IMG/VR virus record: IMGVR_UViG_3300010413_000014
Coordinates: 1 to 64,000 of that record
DNA length: 64,000 nucleotides
Origin: a virus
Reading direction: 5' to 3' (one strand)
Shown here: positions 7,244-20,298 of the stretch, in pieces
Position numbering within the stretch: the stretch's first letter is position 1
How the letters are laid out: every line of letters starts with the position of its first letter
Notes under the pieces: model-generated
What the model saw: only the letters and a program-made list of their open reading frames with translations
What the model was told of the DNA's origin: nothing
The model's database searches: none
Made by a program: the position numbers and the translations under genes

Positions 7244-9085
7244 TTATTTGTTGTTGCTCTTTCCTTCCAGCATTCTAGCCTTCGCTTGTTGAAAGATAGA
7301 TTTTCCTGAATATGGATTAGCTTTAGCTACTACTCTGGGCTTAGTATCCCATACAGATTGAGTGTGAGTAGCCACCATCTCGATTGCCTCTGCCGCTATC
7401 TCGCCTGACTCTTCAAGTTTACTGATCTTTTGAGATATTGCTGCCATCTGAGATCCAAACTCTTCCATTCTGGAATTGATTTTCTCAGCCTCCAATTCAT
7501 TCACTTGCTTTTGTAGCTTCGCAATCTCATCAGAAAGAGCTTTGATTGTTCCGAGCATTTCTTTCCGAATCATCTCTTCTTCTTGTTTAGCTTTCAAGTC
7601 GGCAGCCATCTTCTCTTCTTCTGTCATAGGAGTTGCTGCAGTAGGCTTCATAGGTTCTTGTGGAGCTGGTCCTTCATTAAATTCTGCTGCAGGTTCTGTA
7701 GGCATTGCAGGTTCTGCAGGTTCTGCTGGCTCTGCAGGTTCTGCTGGCTCTGCTGGTTCAATCACCGGTTTGATATCAGTGATAACCCAATCTTCAATAA
7801 CTAGAGTCATTCCATCAGCCAATTTTACTTCACCTTGCTCAAAATTCGTGCGATCTCCGATCGCATATTGAGAAGGATCGTTTTGATAGATCTCAACCTC
7901 CCCCCCTTCTGAAGTACTATAGAGTTGATTGATGACATCTTTGTACTGAAGCATCGCTATCACTCTACTCAGAATGTTTAATGTTTTCTTCATATTACTT
8001 AACTTGTGTTTGGTGGCAACTGCTGCCGTTACATATTCTTTTTTCTCGAAATCGATTACCTCGTCAGCAAAGCCTAATTTTACAGCTTCTTCTGGCTTAA
8101 TAAAGGTTTCTTTTTCCATCAATTGCTTGATCGTATCTTCTGGTAATCCTGTGAAAGCCATATACAACTCTCGCATATGAGCTTCAAGCTCTCGCAATTG
8201 ACTTGCATACTCCTCTAACTCATTCGCATTCACGTATTCCAGATTAGGAACCATCGGATCATGAACCATCACTTCACCATACTTTGATATTAGCCGCTTA
8301 TTTGCAACTAACATGATCATCGAAGCAATACTATAAGCATTTGCTGTAACGATCGTTATAACGAATTTTCCCTTCATAGAAAGCTCATTTAACCATCGCA
8401 TGATCTTCATTCCTTCATCAACACTTCCTCCTGGGCTACCGATCTCGAGTCTTAGAATATCAAAACTATCAATATCTCCTGCTTGCTCTTGAAGATTCTT
8501 TAAAGTTACATCCTCAATCACCTCACACTCCATCTTAATGGTAATTGCTCTTGGTTGTGCTACATTCACTGGTTTCGATTTATTCTTAAAACGGTTGAAT
8601 GGATGTCTGGTCATTTTAGAGTTATATAACCATAATCGAAACACTTCTACTTGCACTTCGCTTATGTATCCACATCCAGACCACCCTTCTTCATAATTAC
8701 TTAAATATGCCTGCTTTGCTTCATCGATCGAGCTAAACCCAAACATAACCTTATGTTCATCGAATGCTCTTGTTGTTGGGTTTACTTGATCAATCACATA
8801 GAGATTATCGTTCGAAAAATCAGTACCTAAAAAGACATCGATTGGATCTCCATCTTTACCAACAGTTCCACAAAAGAAGCCATAAGAATGCTGCATTTGT
8901 GTTTCCCAAGATTTGCCATCTAGATCAACACCTCTCCTGATTGAGCCTAATGGATTCTCGATTGCAATCTTAAATCCATTAATTGTAACCTTTCCTTTGG
9001 AATAGTTACCAAACTCTTTCTGCTTTTCTGTTGGATTGATATTCGTTCGCTCTTCTGCAGCTTTAATTCTCTCTTCTAGTTTCAT
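7244..9085 (-). CDS. InPase-like domain + ClpP-type prohead protease + scaffold fusion
   Basis: N-terminal GNYSKGKV..IENPLGSIR..HSYG..GKDGDPIDVF..FDEHKVMFGF; central ClpP motifs SPGGSV, AYSIAS, VMVHDP, ETFIKPEEAVKLGFAD; acidic coiled-coil C-terminus. Confidence 0.8.
   Translation of the reverse strand: MKLEERIKAAEERTNINPTEKQKEFGNYSKGKVTINGFKIAIENPLGSIRRGVDLDGKSWETQMQHSYGFFCGTVGKDGDPIDVFLGTDFSNDNLYVIDQVNPTTRAFDEHKVMFGFSSIDEAKQAYLSNYEEGWSGCGYISEVQVEVFRLWLYNSKMTRHPFNRFKNKSKPVNVAQPRAITIKMECEVIEDVTLKNLQEQAGDIDSFDILRLEIGSPGGSVDEGMKIMRWLNELSMKGKFVITIVTANAYSIASMIMLVANKRLISKYGEVMVHDPMVPNLEYVNANELEEYASQLRELEAHMRELYMAFTGLPEDTIKQLMEKETFIKPEEAVKLGFADEVIDFEKKEYVTAAVATKHKLSNMKKTLNILSRVIAMLQYKDVINQLYSTSEGGEVEIYQNDPSQYAIGDRTNFEQGEVKLADGMTLVIEDWVITDIKPVIEPAEPAEPAEPAEPAEPAMPTEPAAEFNEGPAPQEPMKPTAATPMTEEEKMAADLKAKQEEEMIRKEMLGTIKALSDEIAKLQKQVNELEAEKINSRMEEFGSQMAAISQKISKLEESGEIAAEAIEMVATHTQSVWDTKPRVVAKANPYSGKSIFQQAKARMLEGKSNNK
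7706..7759 (-). repeat. Six 9-bp tandem repeats encoding an (EPA)6 linker
   Basis: tgcaggttc/tgctggctc units in tandem. Confidence 0.9.
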
Positions 9086-11219: not shown

Positions 11220-13634
11220 TTAAGGATGAAAGGGTCCCATTTCTACTAAATCATAAACATCTCCGATCGATCCAGACCAATATACAACAAGACCACTTGA
11301 CGCAACAATTTGAATGTTATTTGTGAGAGAATAATAATCCACAGGAGGTCTTGGAATCCTAGAATTATCAATATCACCTACCGATCCAGGCACTGCATTT
11401 GCAGTAGCTGTTCCATTTACGTAATACTTACCTGTATCTGCATCATATAAGATTGAGAATCCAGCTGTTGTCTGATATGAGTAATATCTTGAGCTTAATG
11501 ACGGAGCTCTTAATAAATACAAATCTACCGGTACAGTAGAATTAATATACTCTTTGACTTCTTCTATTATACAGAACCCTAATAGATCATTCACATATAC
11601 AGGCTTCTTGATATCGAGTGTCTTTATGGTGGATTCTGGGATTGTGAATTGAACCTTAACTCGAAGTCCTATATCAATTAGATTATACCACTCCTCTATT
11701 CCGCGAGGAAGGGATAAATAATTGATATTCTGCACATGAGCATAATTATTAGAACTTCCTTCTGTTCCGTTTGCTCTGGTTGGAATTAATCCATTGATAT
11801 CATACTCCGAATTCACTAACCCTAATCCTAGATTCTTATACTCGAAATAAGGATGAGATCCTAGAAAATTAACAGATTGTACGGCAGATATGTCTTTGAA
11901 TTCTTTTGAATAGTATTCAACCAAAGAATCTAATTTACTCTCAATTCCTCCGGTTGTTAGTACTCTATCGTAAGAGTTTCCACGATAAGGCTCCTTGAGA
12001 CCGATTCTATTAATCTTTCCATAATTCAATCCAAAATCTGTATCATAGACCGCCAATCTCTCACTAACTAGATGATTGCTCCAGTCATAAAAATCTCCAA
12101 CTGCAATCTTTCGAGAATATGTTCCATATGTAAAGAAAACGACCTCCTTATTTTTTTCATCGATATCACAAAGAAGACCTTGTTGAGATAAGATTCCTAC
12201 TAGTAGAGTACTGATCGAATTCTTGGGGAATTCGCTTGTTAAATTTACAGTTGTGTTTATGAAGTATTCATCATTCTCATTGTACACGATCTCTTCTGCT
12301 GCTGGATTAATATATGTTTCTACTATATAGGAATCTAGCAGCTGTTGATCAAAGGCATTGATTCCACCTTTACTCTTAACATCAACAAAGATACCAAGAA
12401 AAGTTCCTCCTCCTGCGGGAGGAATCTCCATCTCTGCCTTATCTACTTCGCAATCAATACTTGTAATCTCTGCATAGACAGAGAGGTCGGGATCAGTTGT
12501 TAAGGTTTTGAAAACCACATTACCTCCAGGAGTTACATTCTCATAAGCTGCAAATACACTCACTCGAGCATTCAATGGTTCAAGAGCTGCTCCATATGGA
12601 GATACGATTGCTAAATTGCCATGAATATTGATCGTTCCTACATACCCCTTACTTACATCCGGCATATACCCACAAGTTCGAAGTCTATACGAATAGTCCG
12701 GATACATATCAGCAGGTTTACCCCAGTTTGGAATATCGATTGGTCTAAAATACGGCCCAATCCCCACAAACTCCATCACATTATAACAATAGTTTGTGGG
12801 AGGTGGAGTTGAAAAAGATGTTCCATATGGATTGCTTGATGCATTGGTGTCTGAGGTAAATTGCAACAATGAATTCTTTGCTTCATTATTATTTTTACCT
12901 TTATCTGAGACGATATAGGATACAGATAGATCATTGATATCGACCTCTTTCTCATATATTGGCATGTATCCATATGCATAGCAAATTGAATCCAAAAAAG
13001 CCTTAACATTTAATAGAGGTCTTGTTTGCCAGGGATTGATTCTATCAGGAGGAACTCGCTCATCAGTATCTAGCTTGTTGAATTTGTCGCCTATCGAATT
13101 TAAGGTATTAGGAAAGAGGGATAATGGATAAGTCTTCCCTGAAATTGTCGATAATCTTGCTAAATCGCCTGAAGTGATATTGTACGATGTCATCTCATCA
13201 ACTACACTCTGATAAGTAATCGGGAGATTTGAGTAAAGCTCACTTGTATTAAAAAGATTGTATAAGTTATCCTTTTTCCACAAATCAATTAAAGCTAGCG
13301 CTCCATCTATATAATTTACATTTATCTGGCCACCATCTGTATTATTGATGACCAAATAACCTTTCAATATACTATCATCATCAATCAACACCTTGCACTC
13401 CCACTTCTTATTCAATTGATTTGATAAAGAGGTATGATTAAATCGATTCAACTCCAATGCAGCTATATTGTAACTAGTGTACGGTAAACTAAGTGTATTG
13501 CTGTGCTTTATTTCTCTTGAATAAGGGTTACCTATTCGATTGACTACAGCATTATACTTCACACTCTCTCTATCAAATGTTTCTAGAGCTATCCAACTAG
13601 TGTTTTTCTTTATGTAGAGTTCTTGCTTGATCAT
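11220..13634 (-). CDS. Tail tip / baseplate hub protein, putative
   Basis: 804 aa, adjacent to the tape measure gene; HSNTLSLPYT..N-type N-terminus seen in siphovirus tail proteins. Confidence 0.6.
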   Translation of the reverse strand: MIKQELYIKKNTSWIALETFDRESVKYNAVVNRIGNPYSREIKHSNTLSLPYTSYNIAALELNRFNHTSLSNQLNKKWECKVLIDDDSILKGYLVINNTDGGQINVNYIDGALALIDLWKKDNLYNLFNTSELYSNLPITYQSVVDEMTSYNITSGDLARLSTISGKTYPLSLFPNTLNSIGDKFNKLDTDERVPPDRINPWQTRPLLNVKAFLDSICYAYGYMPIYEKEVDINDLSVSYIVSDKGKNNNEAKNSLLQFTSDTNASSNPYGTSFSTPPPTNYCYNVMEFVGIGPYFRPIDIPNWGKPADMYPDYSYRLRTCGYMPDVSKGYVGTINIHGNLAIVSPYGAALEPLNARVSVFAAYENVTPGGNVVFKTLTTDPDLSVYAEITSIDCEVDKAEMEIPPAGGGTFLGIFVDVKSKGGINAFDQQLLDSYIVETYINPAAEEIVYNENDEYFINTTVNLTSEFPKNSISTLLVGILSQQGLLCDIDEKNKEVVFFTYGTYSRKIAVGDFYDWSNHLVSERLAVYDTDFGLNYGKINRIGLKEPYRGNSYDRVLTTGGIESKLDSLVEYYSKEFKDISAVQSVNFLGSHPYFEYKNLGLGLVNSEYDINGLIPTRANGTEGSSNNYAHVQNINYLSLPRGIEEWYNLIDIGLRVKVQFTIPESTIKTLDIKKPVYVNDLLGFCIIEEVKEYINSTVPVDLYLLRAPSLSSRYYSYQTTAGFSILYDADTGKYYVNGTATANAVPGSVGDIDNSRIPRPPVDYYSLTNNIQIVASSGLVVYWSGSIGDVYDLVEMGPFHP

Positions 13635-14611
13635 CGCACATCCATTTCAGTAGATGATATACTTTCTAGAGATATCGTCACATCTGCACCATTGGTTAGA
13701 TTTGAGGTAGGAATAGCTATCGAACTTACTCTCATTAGCTCTAGGGGAGCTTGTTCGCTTGTCATAAAATATAATGCTGGAGAATAAGCGATACTTTTCA
13801 AAGCCTCTGCTTCTTTCTGAGTGACTCCTATAGAGCGGACAGTGATTGATTCTTTGAAAGCTACTTTCGTATAATTAGTTTCTACGTAAGGACTTCCTCC
13901 TGTTGTAGCTGTACTTTTAAACATATCAACATCCAATGTTTCACTATAAGATTGAGTAGGAGTAACTGTTAAGATATCGAAGCCGTAACTCATCCAACCT
14001 CCATATCGACTCTTCCAAATCAGATATCCTCCACATACAATTCTTCCTTGAGTTGGTTGATCAAAGTATACAGTAGGCCTTGAATCAGTCAAAGTTGGAT
14101 CCTTTAAGGTTATCTCGAAAAATGGATAACTATCAAATTCTGGTTGACTTATTCCTTGAACACTCCATTCATTCAAATGCTGTGTTGAATAGACAGTTGA
14201 TGTAAAGTTTCTGAAGCTTCTTCCTCCTATCAATGGAAGCTTTGCTATTATTGAAGGAGTTGTGGTTACATCTGTCGTGATCAGAAAATCATACTTATAT
14301 TGGGTAACAATTGTTTTCCAATCAATATGTGATCCTGATGCGATCTTATAAACATTTGCTGCGTGATGCTGCCTGGTTAATTTCATAAGATCGATAGTGA
14401 TCTCTCCACTAGCATTTAAATCAGCTTCCAAATAATTGGGCAACGTTTCTATTATCGCATCTGTTTGCATATCTCTTATCCTAAGGTTAACTCGAACAAC
14501 AAAGGATCCTGATTCAATTATTCGTACTCTTAGAGGTTCGTATAGGTAGCAATATGTTCTTGTTGATGTTGCTACTTGCCCTAATATCTCTGGTGTAATT
14601 GTTATAGCCAT
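13631..14611 (-). CDS. Distal tail protein, putative
   Basis: C-terminal LIWKSRYGGWMSYGF motif typical of Bacteroidota phage tail proteins; ATGA overlap with the next gene. Confidence 0.55.
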   Translation of the reverse strand: MAITITPEILGQVATSTRTYCYLYEPLRVRIIESGSFVVRVNLRIRDMQTDAIIETLPNYLEADLNASGEITIDLMKLTRQHHAANVYKIASGSHIDWKTIVTQYKYDFLITTDVTTTPSIIAKLPLIGGRSFRNFTSTVYSTQHLNEWSVQGISQPEFDSYPFFEITLKDPTLTDSRPTVYFDQPTQGRIVCGGYLIWKSRYGGWMSYGFDILTVTPTQSYSETLDVDMFKSTATTGGSPYVETNYTKVAFKESITVRSIGVTQKEAEALKSIAYSPALYFMTSEQAPLELMRVSSIAIPTSNLTNGADVTISLESISSTEMDVR

Positions 14612-14806
14612 TATTTATATGTTTTTGACGTTGTATTTGAAGGATCATTCCTTCTTCTGATATATAACGCCACTTGCATTTAGATCGTGGCTTATTCTCT
14701 TTATTTTTAACAAAAGGAAGCTCTCTGCTTTTTCATCATCACTTACAGATAAGCTTCCTTTCAACCTTGTCGGGATTTTCCGAACTATAACTAAACGTCC
14801 GGTATG

Positions 14807-14942
14807 CGCCTCATCGGAGATTCGAACTCCTTCAATCGGAACTGTGCACAGCTCTACGATTACTAGTCATAAAGAAGCATTCTATTGATATAGCTAGCTT
14901 ATATCTGAATACTTCCCATCGCCACGATGTAATGACAGAGGC
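14807..14942 (-). ncRNA. Enlarged tRNA-like structured RNA (136 nt)
   Basis: 5' GCCTC pairs with 3' GAGGC; T-arm GGAG-TTCGAAT-CTCC; three further internal stems. Confidence 0.65.
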
Positions 14943-14943
14943 A

Positions 14944-15186
14944 TTATCTTTGTGAATGGTTCTCTTTCAACCACACCTTCGCTATTGTGAATGCATTTGC
15001 TAACATTTCCGTCTTTGCAGCATACATCATCGGAAAGAATGGATCCTTCCTATTTAATCCTCTAAAGGGATTACAGACAATTGTTTGCTGCTTCTTAACC
15101 TCAACATAATGCTCTATCACTCGACACATCTCTTCTATTGAGAATACTTCTGTATCACTTCGGTTAATGATCTCATTTGTATCCAT
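14944..15186 (-). CDS. Hypothetical protein (80 aa)
   Basis: ORF with ATG start on the coding strand. Confidence 0.6.
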   Translation of the reverse strand: MDTNEIINRSDTEVFSIEEMCRVIEHYVEVKKQQTIVCNPFRGLNRKDPFFPMMYAAKTEMLANAFTIAKVWLKENHSQR

Positions 15187-15193
15187 ATTCTAG

Positions 15194-15565
15194 TTTGCTT
15201 CAATTCTTCGTTTCACTTTGCGCCTTTATGAGGAGTCTTGAATCTCGCATCGATTGTGGATTGGTGATTTTTAGCTCCATTAGCTTCTTAGCTTCTCGTT
15301 TCATTTCTTTTTGCGCTGAAGCTAAATTTTTGAAAGCTGCATTTTCTGCATATCATTTTCAATTAGCTTCTTGCGTCTTTCTCGTTTCGTTTCTTTTGCG
15401 TAAGACGCAAAATGAAAGCTGCATTTTCTGCAGAGTTTTGATTTTAGCTTCCTCTTAGCTTCATCGTTTCGTTTCTTAACTTCCTGAAGTAAATTAAACT
15501 CTGCACTTTTTGCGATACTTTGATTTTAGCTTCTCTTTACTTCGTTGAGTTCGCTTCACTTCTTC
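15194..15565. repeat. Degenerate tandem array of ~82-bp units (4-5 copies)
   Basis: ttagcttc at 15280, 15363, 15444, 15526; tcgtttc at 15208, 15296, 15382, 15464; gctgcattttctgca twice. Confidence 0.75.
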
Positions 15566-15809
15566 ATTGGAGTAGCAAGCAAACCAGACGATGCATCCAT
15601 AGCATGTTGCGAACGGGCAATCTGAACCTACTCTTGAATTTGCTTTCATATGTCACTTGGCTTGGTGTTTGTTGTTGGTATTTGAGATTCTGAAGCATCC
15701 TTAATCACCTTCAACCTTTCTATCAAAACAAATGACAAATACCACCTACAAACCTAATTAGGTATTTTCTTACACCACTCCTTATTTCTTATCATTGTAG
15801 GATAATTGA

Positions 15810-16460
15810 GCTTGATTGAGAAAGTTTGATCATTTTCTCAGAAAGGTCTCCAAAATTTGTTTATCTAAGTTTGAAATATTTTTTCTCACACCGAGTGGTA
15901 TTTCTCATACGTTAAGATAGAAATTCCACAAATAAGAAAAATCCTTAATTTGTCAAATTTTTTGCAAGAAGTTAGTTAAACTTTTTAAAGTCAGAATTTC
16001 TCACAAACTTTCTAATTTGTTACTAATTCTATAGAAAATCAATTCTCAAAGGTGCACTATTTGCAGAGAAGCTAGCCTTCATTTTAGAAATCAGAATTTC
16101 TCACAAACCTTGGTATTTCTCATACAAAGATCTACAAATCTTTCAGATAACAAAATCCTCTAATTTCTATAAAAGTTGGACAGAAATTAGACCAACAAAA
16201 CTAATCACCGATTTTCTCACACCAACTGGTATTTGTTATTTATTTGTGAGAAATTCTAAGACGATAGAAAAATCTTAACTTTGTGTCATTATATATGAGA
16301 AACTAGCTTTGGTAATTGTTTGACCATTTTCTCATACGAGCTCTAGTTTCTATCGAATTCGGACACAAAATTCCTCACATGAGAAATCGTCCATCTTTCT
16401 ATTCTCAATAACAAGAAATACGATCTCTAAACTGATCTTTAAATTTCTCACTTGAGAGCT
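15810..16460. repeat. Non-coding field of TTCTCA/TGAGAA iteron-like motifs
   Basis: About 15 copies in both orientations; tcagaatttctcacaaac duplicated at 15991 and 16091. Confidence 0.7.
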
Positions 16461-16469
16461 TATTTGTTG

Positions 16470-16554
16470 CAGAGAGTGAGAGATTCGAACTCTCGAGACT
16501 TTTACATCTGACGCCTTAGCGGGGCGCTGCTTTCAACCACTCAGCCAACTCTCT
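16470..16554 (-). tRNA. tRNA-Ser(GCT)
   Basis: AGAGAGT/ACTCTCT acceptor stem, G discriminator, long variable arm, GAGAG-TTCGAAT-CTCTC T-arm, anticodon loop CC-GCT-AA; CCA not encoded. Confidence 0.9.
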
Positions 16555-16773
16555 AAAGGCTCACCCTGAGCGCGCTGTTCTATGGGAAGCGGGATGAGCT
16601 CTATGAATGATAGGCTTCCTCAACCTATCGTGTCCCTGAATTTCTCTCCAATGGGCTTCTTTCTCTTTCGAGGCGGAGATGAGGATTATGATAATGTCCG
16701 TTTTATTATTAGAAGCGATGTGGACATCAGTGAACATCTGCTTATTTCAAAGATCGTTTGCCTGATACAGGAC
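16555..16773 (-). ncRNA. Candidate structured RNA between the neck gene and tRNA-Ser
   Basis: GC-enriched intergenic stretch with several hairpins (GATAGGTT/AGCCTATC, TGATGTCC/GGACATTA, CTC-GAAA-GAG, GCTCA/TGAGC). Confidence 0.35.
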
Positions 16774-19059: not shown

Positions 19060-20298
19060 TTAGATGTATCCTTTCGATCTCACAGCTCTCGCTCCTGGCT
19101 TCACTGGCGCACCATCTGACTTTGTATTCTTGTAGGTTAATCCATATCGTAGTGCTGCTAATGTATCAGGCTCGTGTGGATAGTTATCCTTCTGATCCTT
19201 CTTGAAGGTCATGTATGCGAAATATAGATGTGGGTTATCTCCTATCATCACGATTGGCATATCTTGAACCTTCTTGATGCCTTGATCCTTACTATTCGGA
19301 CCTTTCTTGCAGCCTCGGATCTTTCTAAATCCTGCTTTACGAATCTCGCCTATGAATGCTGGCATTGCTGAGTCAGCTACTATGAGAGCGTTTGATGGGA
19401 CTTGGTGCTGCTTCATCAGTTGGATTGTTTCACTGATTAGCATCTTCGGCCTAGAAAATACTTCGCGCACATAGTATACCTCATCAAAGTAATTGATCTC
19501 TATGAGTGCTGTACTATCCTTTCCTCCGTTTCCAAAGTCTAATCCATACCAGACCTCTCCTTGATCATAGAATATTGGATACTCACCCCACCCATCATAG
19601 ATCCTTCCTTCAACCTCTAATGTCCATTCTGCTAAGATAACGTTCTTGTAGTAGGTTGGATTGGTTCTCTCTAAGTCTCGATACCTCTGTACTGTTGATG
19701 CAGCTAGGTTATCAAGATTATCTAAATAGGTACTATGGATGTAGCATGTATCATGGAATCTCTCTGGATTTGGTTGTCCTTCGATAAACCATTCTTTGTG
19801 AATCCAACTTTTTACGGCTGATCCGGGGTTATAAACAAGAATAATCTTTAAAGGCTTTCCTTTTACTCGAACACCTTCATCGATCTTAGAGAACTCATCA
19901 AAACTCTCGATTTCCTCCGCTTCTTCCATTATTACTATCGTAATTCCGGATAAAGACTTTAACTTTGCGGTTTGGCTTCCTGTTGCTCTAATTCCTTTGA
20001 AAGAAATAGTGCTACCTGTGATCTTATTTGTGTAGAGATTGGTCTTATAGTGAAAATCATCTCTAACTCCCATCATCTTCATGACGAGTTCTACATCTGC
20101 GATCGTCGAATCTTCACTTGAAGTCATCACTTGTCGTAGATATAGAATCTTATGACCAAAATCCGAGTATGTTGCTGTTACTGCAGCTCCTGCTGCAGTG
20201 AAAGACTTTGCAGAACCCCTACCTCCGTAAACTTGATAATACCTCTTATCAGTTAGCTCGTCACTAAACAATGATTCGAAGATAGGTGAAAACTCCAT
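19060..20298 (-). CDS. terL: Terminase large subunit (PBSX/SPP1-like)
   Basis: GGRGSAKS Walker A, MEEAEE Walker B, YNP, HSTYLDN, GLDFG nuclease motif, ADSA, D..AALRY. Confidence 0.95.
   Translation of the reverse strand: MEFSPIFESLFSDELTDKRYYQVYGGRGSAKSFTAAGAAVTATYSDFGHKILYLRQVMTSSEDSTIADVELVMKMMGVRDDFHYKTNLYTNKITGSTISFKGIRATGSQTAKLKSLSGITIVIMEEAEEIESFDEFSKIDEGVRVKGKPLKIILVYNPGSAVKSWIHKEWFIEGQPNPERFHDTCYIHSTYLDNLDNLAASTVQRYRDLERTNPTYYKNVILAEWTLEVEGRIYDGWGEYPIFYDQGEVWYGLDFGNGGKDSTALIEINYFDEVYYVREVFSRPKMLISETIQLMKQHQVPSNALIVADSAMPAFIGEIRKAGFRKIRGCKKGPNSKDQGIKKVQDMPIVMIGDNPHLYFAYMTFKKDQKDNYPHEPDTLAALRYGLTYKNTKSDGAPVKPGARAVRSKGYI

Follow-up and report, generated by a model that had tools for sequence, protein, structure and literature searches.

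A 136-nt tRNA-like RNA element as a possible transcript punctuation signal in a Cbastvirus-like marine phage

The DNA analysed here, hereafter the window, is a 64,000-nt stretch of the IMG/VR viral record IMGVR_UViG_3300010413_000014, and the subject of this report is a 136-nt RNA element on its minus strand (14807-14942), located between an 80-aa open reading frame (ORF) and a 326-aa virion structural gene. The element is very probably a genuine tRNA-like RNA that does not decode. By analogy with elements at the same place in related phages, it may be a mimic of the top half of a tRNA (acceptor, T and D parts) that punctuates the late transcript by way of host RNase P and RNase Z, a reading that we favour with confidence just short of even; that processing or punctuation is its main role is put forward a little more guardedly. 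The evidence comprises the fold and its strand bias, the genomic slot in which the element lies and covariation of the top half in two families of slot elements, referred to below as groups A and B.

The element was numbered from nucleotide 1 (G1, window 14942) to G136 (14807) on the minus strand. The preliminary description had listed an acceptor, a D-like hairpin, a long arm, a variable arm and a T arm, and all five helices were recovered in the unconstrained minimum free energy (MFE) fold of 14807-14942. The 5' strand of the acceptor, GCCUC-U-GUC (14934-14942), pairs with the 3' strand GAUGAGGC (14808-14815) to give 8 bp (nt 1-5 and 7-9 with 128-135), with U6 (U14937) bulged and a U at position -1 (14943). 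The 3' strand is stacked straight on the T stem, and the acceptor/T branch is thus split 8/4 with 12 bp in total. The D-like hairpin CAUCG-UGG-CGAUG (14917-14929; nt 14-18/22-26) follows 4 nt after the acceptor; the GG in its unusually small loop of 3 nt corresponds to G18/G19 of tRNA. The anticodon position is occupied by a long arm (14873-14916; nt 27-70) consisting of 10 bp, an internal loop, 6 bp and the apical loop AGCUAGC, in which position 33 is a G; this interrupted 16-bp arm is not a 5-bp anticodon stem. The unpaired 10-nt spacer UUAUGACUAG (14863-14872), where a class II tRNA has 1-2 nt, leads to a second long arm at the variable-arm position (14833-14862; nt 81-110; 6+6 bp, loop UGCA). 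The T arm GGAG-UUCGAAU-CUCC (14816-14830; nt 113-127) has 4 bp, a canonical T loop of the UUCRANY type and a closing pair of the G53-C61 type, and a 13-nt stretch of it is identical to the T arm of the tRNA-Ser in the window (family D16). G136 at the discriminator position is followed by CA and no CCA is encoded; the G-C-A end noted in the preliminary description is indeed shared with the nearby tRNA-Ser, which has the same G discriminator and CA. Likewise, the element is cloverleaf-ordered and, at 136 nt against the 85 nt of that tRNA-Ser, far longer than a tRNA. Both apical regions are palindromes at the DNA level (GCTAGC and CTGTGCACAG). Pairing of the apical CUAG with the spacer CUAG was considered and set aside as sterically doubtful.

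The MFE of the element was -44 kcal/mol, compared with -31.8 +/- 3.5 kcal/mol for shuffled sequences (z -3.5), and one of 200 shuffles was equally stable. The plus strand folded to -31.7 kcal/mol only (z -1.9), as would be expected of a gene-strand RNA containing several G-U pairs. Both long arms are predictions from thermodynamics only, and the top half is credible by analogy with the slot relatives described below. A descriptor combining a T arm with a TTCRANN loop, an adjacent 8-bp closing stem with one bulge allowed and a GG hairpin matched the two real tRNAs, the element and one AT-rich intragenic site in the window, with a chance level of 0.38 matches per simulated 64-kb window. Such a pattern by itself is thus no rarity; for it to fall on the gene strand, within a 330-nt non-coding gap and in a syntenic tRNA slot goes far beyond chance. 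The element is not overlapped by any ORF of at least 40 aa. Its acceptor/T/elbow part lies between genes and on their strand, and the TAA (14944-14946) of the upstream 80-aa ORF (14944-15186, minus) ends 1 nt before G1, as the preliminary description had stated. That ORF gave no Pfam or PHROG match.

Some 45 nt downstream of the element, a long terminator-like hairpin, AAAGGAAGCUU...AGCUUCCUUUUGUU (14712-14762, minus), is arranged as A-tract, hairpin and U-tract; a simple terminator scan did not call it, owing to its large loop. The whole 195-nt spacer between the element and the 326-aa gene (14612-14806, minus) folded to -48.3 kcal/mol (z -5.0) and also holds two smaller hairpins, GCCAC..GUGGC and GAAGGA..UCCUUC.

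No call was made on the element by ARAGORN, whether run with default settings, with introns at the default threshold or in tmRNA mode. Rfam gave no match on it at the gathering score, at E <= 10 in the local region or at E <= 5 across the whole window, and the tRNA and tRNA-Sec (RF01852) models remained silent at E <= 10. The preliminary description had expected no full match from either program, and none was obtained. Weak Rfam matches elsewhere in the region, among them Transposase-1 RNA (E 8.5) and snoR79 (E 0.095), were judged to be due to chance. The element is accordingly taken to be a non-decoder that belongs to no known RNA family. The collection of homologues for a covariation analysis of the element's own sequence, which had also been suggested, yielded nothing: no homologue was found by blastn against 50,697 phage records, by blastn or nhmmer against the related loci, or in three exact or degenerate pattern scans of IMG/VR, and an exact pattern for the second long arm likewise found no relative. 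On sequence grounds the element thus appears to be an independent, singleton variant of the slot element found in related phages.

To define this slot, the 326-aa protein and its homologues were used to gather 5 distinct IMG/VR loci and 77 metagenome loci, and the region upstream of the gene was inspected. Upstream sequence of at least 250 nt before the homologue of the 326-aa gene was available at 65 loci, some of them near-duplicates. In approximately 40 of these 65, a tRNA or tRNA-like element was present 60-370 nt upstream of the gene. The slot elements usually start a few nucleotides past the preceding stop codon, and a small ORF usually separates them from the virion gene. Ordinary tRNAs called by ARAGORN occupy the slot at seven loci (Gln, Met, Ile+Met, Ser+Met, Leu and Ser), and at L089 the tRNA is visibly degenerate. 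The remaining elements were sorted into groups A to D, which are defined in this analysis, together with some smaller forms; the window element is the most elaborate form seen.

Group A comprises five loci (L005:3675-3828, L053:430-576, L056:2680-2814, L072:2680-2825 and L027:1-120). Its members are built of an 8-bp acceptor, a 5-bp hairpin with a GG loop, a linker of 7-12 nt and a 5-bp T arm with the loop UUCGANY; there is no anticodon arm. In the alignment 96.9% of the cells were paired and 10 pairs were changed on both sides, with none of 500 shuffles as good and slid controls far below. A covariance model (R1) built from four members found the held-out L005 at E = 4e-12. The window element occupies the same slot in the same orientation upstream of the 326-aa gene, and it shares with group A the strings CUC..CAUU-CAUCG..GG..GAUGG and UUCGAAU..AUGAG. 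The two differ in the middle, where the short linker of group A is replaced in the window by 82 nt forming the two long hairpins, and at the 5' side, where group A has an extension that the window element lacks. This extension comprises about 90 nt, starts right after the stop codon of a 76-aa ORF and contains a further covarying helix (ACC.UAC/GUA.GGU). If RNase P cleaved group A elements, the upstream mRNA would retain these preceding hairpins at its 3' end.

Group B was found at seven loci (L028:2743-2813, L023:234-305, L031, L041, L044, L048 and L084). This group still scores as tRNA (39.7 bits). Its D arm, T arm and acceptor show conservation or compensation, and in four acceptor pairs both sides have changed compensatorily. 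Pairs are broken in one helix only, the anticodon stem-loop, which has collapsed to 3-4 bp with a freely variable loop; one copy was called tRNA-Stop(UUA) by ARAGORN. The closing stem thus covaries in both families tested, A and B, and the compensatory changes in their top halves show that the remodelled elements there are under selection. Since several slot relatives have no anticodon arm and group B is broken only in the anticodon stem, the function would lie in the acceptor/T/D top half and not in a mimic of the anticodon.

The other forms extend this range. At two loci, L071 and L065, the element consists only of an acceptor, a GG segment or mini-hairpin and a T arm; the mini-hairpin at L065 has a TGG loop like that of the D hairpin in the window element. 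Group C (six loci, L004:3735-3785, L037, L081, L060, L082 and L087, plus L058:780-855) forms a three-way junction whose closing stem occurs in three wholly different, fully paired versions, with an invariant TCGA-AGCRAAA-TCGA hairpin beside the 3' strand. L058 carries an extra arm in the middle and a compensated TCGG/CCGA stem; the extra arm may be regarded, by analogy, as the same kind of difference as that between group A and the window element. Group D (six loci, L024:2735-2805, L026, L029, L032, L086:2734-2817 and L051:730-800) is a cloverleaf with an AT-rich D region and a T loop of UGCAAUU that ARAGORN did not call. Its 7-nt loop CUGUACA is conserved in five of the six (UUAUUUG in L051) and presents UGU/GUA, a Tyr-like anticodon context; group D RNAs may be substrates of a guanine transglycosylase. 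The slot types share a common plan, that of the tRNA top half, in which a closing stem sits on a 3'-proximal hairpin with a 7-nt loop, mostly with a GG hairpin after the 5' strand, and the middle shrinks, varies or grows.

Two further observations were made on the gathered loci. In most relatives the slot element is followed by a conserved ORF of 47-55 aa that has GLGD at its N terminus and contains a CxxC pair (for example L005:3840-3995); this ORF is absent from the window, which has the 195-nt structured spacer instead. In L099, a GC-rich viral contig that is unrelated, the reverse strand has a hairpin with ten perfect base pairs, CUCCGUGUGG-UUCGACU-CCACACGGAG (~8400-8460), directly downstream of a stop codon and with UUACUAA behind it; this hairpin resembles a junction-free acceptor/T minihelix.

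The part of the molecule recognised by RNase P, RNase Z and the CCA-adding enzyme is the only feature common to the real tRNAs and all the remodelled slot elements. A tRNA within a polycistronic transcript is necessarily excised, so in phages with slot tRNAs the transcript is severed at this point; the severing, or the stable RNA end that results, could be what selection keeps once decoding has been lost. For the window element, transcription, cleavage and any effect on expression would proceed as follows. The element would be transcribed together with the upstream gene on the minus strand, and host RNase P would recognise the top half, which consists of the 12-bp coaxial acceptor/T stack, the canonical T loop and the GG-bearing D hairpin, which could form the elbow. 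Cleavage would fall between U14943 and G14942, and the 3' end would be trimmed by RNase Z or by exonucleases moving in from the terminator-like hairpin (14712-14762). Placed at the end of a transcription unit, the element would set the 3' end of the upstream mRNA and free a stable RNA of ~136 nt. A U at position -1, a G1-C72 pair and an acceptor stacked on the T stem are favourable for bacterial RNase P substrates, and the element has all three. No CCA-adding enzyme, RtcB or RNA ligase was found encoded by the phage, and hence any processing would be the work of host enzymes. A possible, if doubtful, generalisation is that Cbastvirus-like marine phages possess a polymorphic family of tRNA top-half RNAs, including real tRNAs, anticodon-less three-way junctions, minihelices and the 136-nt five-armed form, which serves as punctuation for host RNase P and RNase Z in late polycistronic transcripts, the excised mimics possibly being stable and perhaps seryl-chargeable RNAs.

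Several findings weigh against the punctuation reading. Approximately 25 of the 65 loci (L067, for example) have no recognisable slot element, which indicates that it is dispensable. The group A model R1 did not detect the window element at E <= 10, so its homology to the covarying families is proposed from position and architecture only. As the element is a singleton, its long arms and even its acceptor are thermodynamic predictions; moreover, the acceptor requires a bulge and the T stem has just 4 bp. Group C has no canonical T loop, which weakens tRNA mimicry as the common denominator and means that it may not be the whole story. Finally, a cut 1 nt past the stop codon would leave the upstream mRNA nearly without a 3' untranslated region, which would be odd for a stabilising role.

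Among the other explanations, a working decoder and a DNA-level site are both close to excluded, as is tmRNA. As a decoder, the element would be a suppressor tRNA, reading UAG with CUA or, in an alternative fold, using UCA, or else a tRNA with the hairpins as introns. The 7-nt apical loop is centred on CUA, and an alternative 5-bp stem (GAAGU/GCUUC) exposes AUUCAGA with U33 and UCA. However, the principal loop lacks U33 and is held by its 16-bp arm far from the position required by the ribosome. Under the standard code, long ORFs cover 53.4 of the 64 kb, and reading any stop codon as sense adds little; stop-codon recoding was rejected on this ground, and with the standard code in use a suppressor has no job. 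Suppressor activity, called speculative in the preliminary description, can now be considered very unlikely. The intron version gained a point when ARAGORN, relaxed to 80% of its threshold, reported a tRNA-Cys(GCA) with a 62-nt 'intron', but with introns allowed at the default threshold the program was silent. The candidate inserts are the 44- and 30-nt hairpins. Every internal segment whose removal leaves 66-96 nt was deleted (1147 variants) and the products were submitted to ARAGORN at the default threshold; only four were called, and the call, a tRNA-Thr(AGU) with a mismatched acceptor in which the real second hairpin was ignored, is poor. A credible tRNA is thus not recovered by any internal deletion. 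The introns of bacterial tRNAs belong to the self-splicing group I and span about 200 nt or more, which counts against such an insert; no group I intron was matched by Rfam at the element, and neither RtcB nor an RNA ligase was found in the phage. A decoder of any kind is consequently extremely improbable. The tmRNA reading had been dismissed in the preliminary description, and correctly so: the 3-70 pair is C-G and not G-U, and ARAGORN -m returned nothing. As a candidate for a tmRNA-like tag, a 12-codon ORF within the element (AUG ACU ... UGA) was discarded: most of it lies in a helix, and neither Ala identity nor tmRNA features accompany it. Scarcely more probable than a decoder is a site acting as DNA, such as an attP-type duplicate of the 3' end of a host tRNA, or palindromes that bind proteins and form part of the adjacent repeats as a possible origin or packaging site. 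The element does adjoin 1.3 kb of non-coding repeats and contains two palindromes; against this, no integrase was found in the 94%-complete genome, the T-arm-acceptor string, looked for in the genomes of ~186,000 species, matched only unrelated tRNA-Thr/Asp and, by chance, coding sequence, and a site acting as DNA would not be expected to show pairing between the 5' and 3' strands in a strand-asymmetric fold.

Two explanations in which the element is a tRNA relic or a trans-acting RNA deserve more weight, although each is unlikely. It could be a decaying tRNA gene, perhaps of class II, that has taken up palindromic insertions and drifts without function, the hairpins being merely folded palindromes. 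The slot of relatives does hold ordinary tRNAs as well as the degenerate copy at L089, many relatives do without the element, and in the window it has no detectable homologue, a bulged acceptor, a T stem of 4 bp and apical regions that are palindromic in the DNA. Against decay stand the five unbroken helices, with G-U pairs specific to the gene strand, and the canonical T loop and D-loop GG; compensatory changes preserve the top half in both slot families tested, and, as noted above, removing the 'insertions' never restores a credible tRNA. The second explanation, which we also regard as improbable, is a stable mimic acting in trans, which would bind a tRNA-recognising protein through the top half or the variable-type arm and serve as a decoy, a sponge or an amino-acid carrier for non-ribosomal use. 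Candidate targets are a host defence nuclease or toxin directed at the acceptor end, or a synthetase such as seryl-tRNA synthetase (SerRS), and the decoy proposed in the preliminary description is included here. SerRS reads a long variable arm and G73 and ignores the anticodon. The G discriminator, the long variable-position arm, the 8/4 branch and the long D stem with its tiny loop recall allo-tRNAs and tRNA-Sec-like tRNAs (PMC5389517), and the terminator-like hairpin downstream would suit a small RNA gene. On the other side, the loops AGCUAGC and UGCA offer no anticodon-loop mimicry, 10 unpaired nucleotides precede the variable-type arm, which is not seen in class II tRNAs, the tRNA and tRNA-Sec models found nothing even at E <= 10, and no defence or tRNA-modifying gene was found adjoining the element by Pfam and PHROG annotation. 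Of the preliminary claim of a tRNA mimic, what stands is a tRNA-shaped RNA too large and too wrongly built for a tRNA; the anticodon-nuclease or synthetase decoy gained no support, and apical loops unlike an anticodon loop, together with the several slot relatives that have no anticodon arm, speak against a decoy by anticodon mimicry.

The window represents most of a 75.8-kb IMG/VR viral contig with an estimated completeness of 94%, and nearly all of its genes are on the minus strand. Near the element are the large terminase gene (19060-20298) and several genes labelled virion structural by PHROG. One of these is the 326-aa gene downstream of the element (13631-14611, minus; phrog_12067), which served as the anchor for the slot comparison. 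Its product found no relative in the PDB by profile search and no Pfam match, and its sole label is PHROG 'virion structural protein'. The closest relatives of the protein (P0002, P0003 and P0004) are 51, 47 and 45% identical, and it is 33-36% identical to structural proteins of the Cellulophaga phages phiST, phi13:1 and phi19:2 and the Tenacibaculum phage Larrie, all of the genus Cbastvirus. Judged by this identity, the phage is a distant Cbastvirus-like phage, and its host is presumably one of the marine Flavobacteriia. A marine sediment metagenome was the only sequencing run containing the whole stretch; one other DNA run matched only 14962-15112 and 15150-15300, outside the element.

The surrounding non-coding DNA was also surveyed. 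Compared with L002 (phiST) and L005, the window region 14612-16770 lacks counterparts of gp021 (623 aa) and gp022 (350 aa), which precede the 326-aa gene in phiST; in their place are ~2.1 kb of mostly non-coding DNA, the tRNA-Ser and the tRNA-like element. Directly after the tRNA-Ser, 770 nt (15700-16470) contain no ORF in any frame and are dense in TGAGAAA/TTTCTCA motifs in both orientations, with repeat families of 28-52 nt (the TTCTCA array). Between this array and the 80-aa ORF, 15194-15570 consists of non-coding repeats of ~82-86 nt with the cores TGAAAGCTGCATTTTCTGCA and TTCTCGTTTCGTTTCTT. A k-mer search for a late promoter gave nothing near the element. The 11-mer TCTCATAAAGC occurs five times on the gene strand (58678, 48854, 29217, 18282 and 7239, minus), twice within the virion module, and might belong to a phage-specific promoter or processing site.

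The usual view of phage tRNA genes is that they help with codon usage or replace tRNAs destroyed by host defence. In the present case the content of a single genomic slot ranges from ordinary tRNAs down to elements reduced to the part recognised by processing enzymes, and the compensatory changes in the two families tested argue for a second, non-decoding use of the tRNA shape in phages. The punctuation reading, if true, would amount to a tRNA-punctuation system in a bacterial virus. To our knowledge, the ribosome-binding rules and RNA processing of Bacteroidota phages are poorly known, and cleavage at the slot, if confirmed, would provide a simple, testable model of how their late transcripts are cut and would explain the 'pseudo-tRNAs' that tRNA finders report in phage genomes. 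Were the window element a drifting relic, the finding would be ordinary; the pattern across the family is in any case of more interest than the singleton. In the literature searched, there was no account of a conserved phage slot with anticodon-less tRNA top halves, nor of the five-armed 136-nt form.

The known system nearest at hand is the class II tRNA-Ser(GCU) of the window itself (16470-16554). The element resembles it in helix order, the 13-nt core of the T arm, the G discriminator followed by CA, the strand and the absence of an encoded CCA, but is 136 nt long against 85 and has a bulged 8-bp acceptor, a 4-bp T stem, a 3-nt D loop and no anticodon loop. Two other non-decoding RNAs share the mimicry of acceptor, T and D parts without an anticodon. 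In tmRNA it forms the tRNA-like domain; unlike tmRNA, the element has no G3-U70 pair, no tmRNA-type tag frame, no pseudoknots and no match from ARAGORN -m or Rfam. It also occurs in the tRNA-like domain of YrlA, a bacterial Y RNA; in YrlA, however, it is the base of the long Ro-binding helix that carries the RNA ends, whereas the ends of the element lie at the acceptor. The stable RNA species 1 and 2 of phage T4, of ~120-140 nt and unknown function, are linked to tRNA genes and tRNA-type processing and are offered as a lead only.

Odd tRNAs are increasingly being noticed in phages (Mukai et al.). The allo-tRNAs and (8/4) tRNA-Sec-like tRNAs described by those authors are mostly thought to be SerRS substrates irrespective of their anticodon; a regulatory role has been proposed for some, and toxin-antitoxin systems are often found near the genes of these tRNAs (PMC5389517). 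The element has in common with them the 12-bp branch split 8/4, the long D stem with a very small loop, the long variable arm, the G discriminator and the occurrence in phages. They differ in being decoding RNAs with a normal 7-nt anticodon loop containing U33 on a stem of 5-6 bp, in place of the 16-bp arm of the element. When these tRNAs carry a bulge, it is located in the T stem at 51a, whereas the element has its bulge in the acceptor. In addition, they were found with tRNA-Sec-derived models, to which the element, like the tRNA models, gave no match at E <= 10, and 10 unpaired nucleotides precede the variable-type arm of the element.

Processing signals and mimics with a tRNA-like form are already known from plant RNA viruses, organelles and mammalian long non-coding RNAs (lncRNAs). 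The t-elements of plant mitochondria and the mascRNA module of MALAT1 are tRNA-like structures that are cut by RNase P and RNase Z to generate mRNA or lncRNA ends (PMC4919922). These systems are eukaryotic or organellar, whereas the element is carried by a double-stranded DNA phage of bacteria; cleavage has been demonstrated there and would occur by inference in the phage, and the phage element carries two long extra hairpins, with a terminator-like hairpin downstream. The likeness lies in a non-decoding tRNA shape that is placed in a longer transcript directly after a functional RNA and in which the acceptor, T arm and elbow are kept. Release of a small tRNA-like RNA, known in those systems, is what is proposed here for the phage element.

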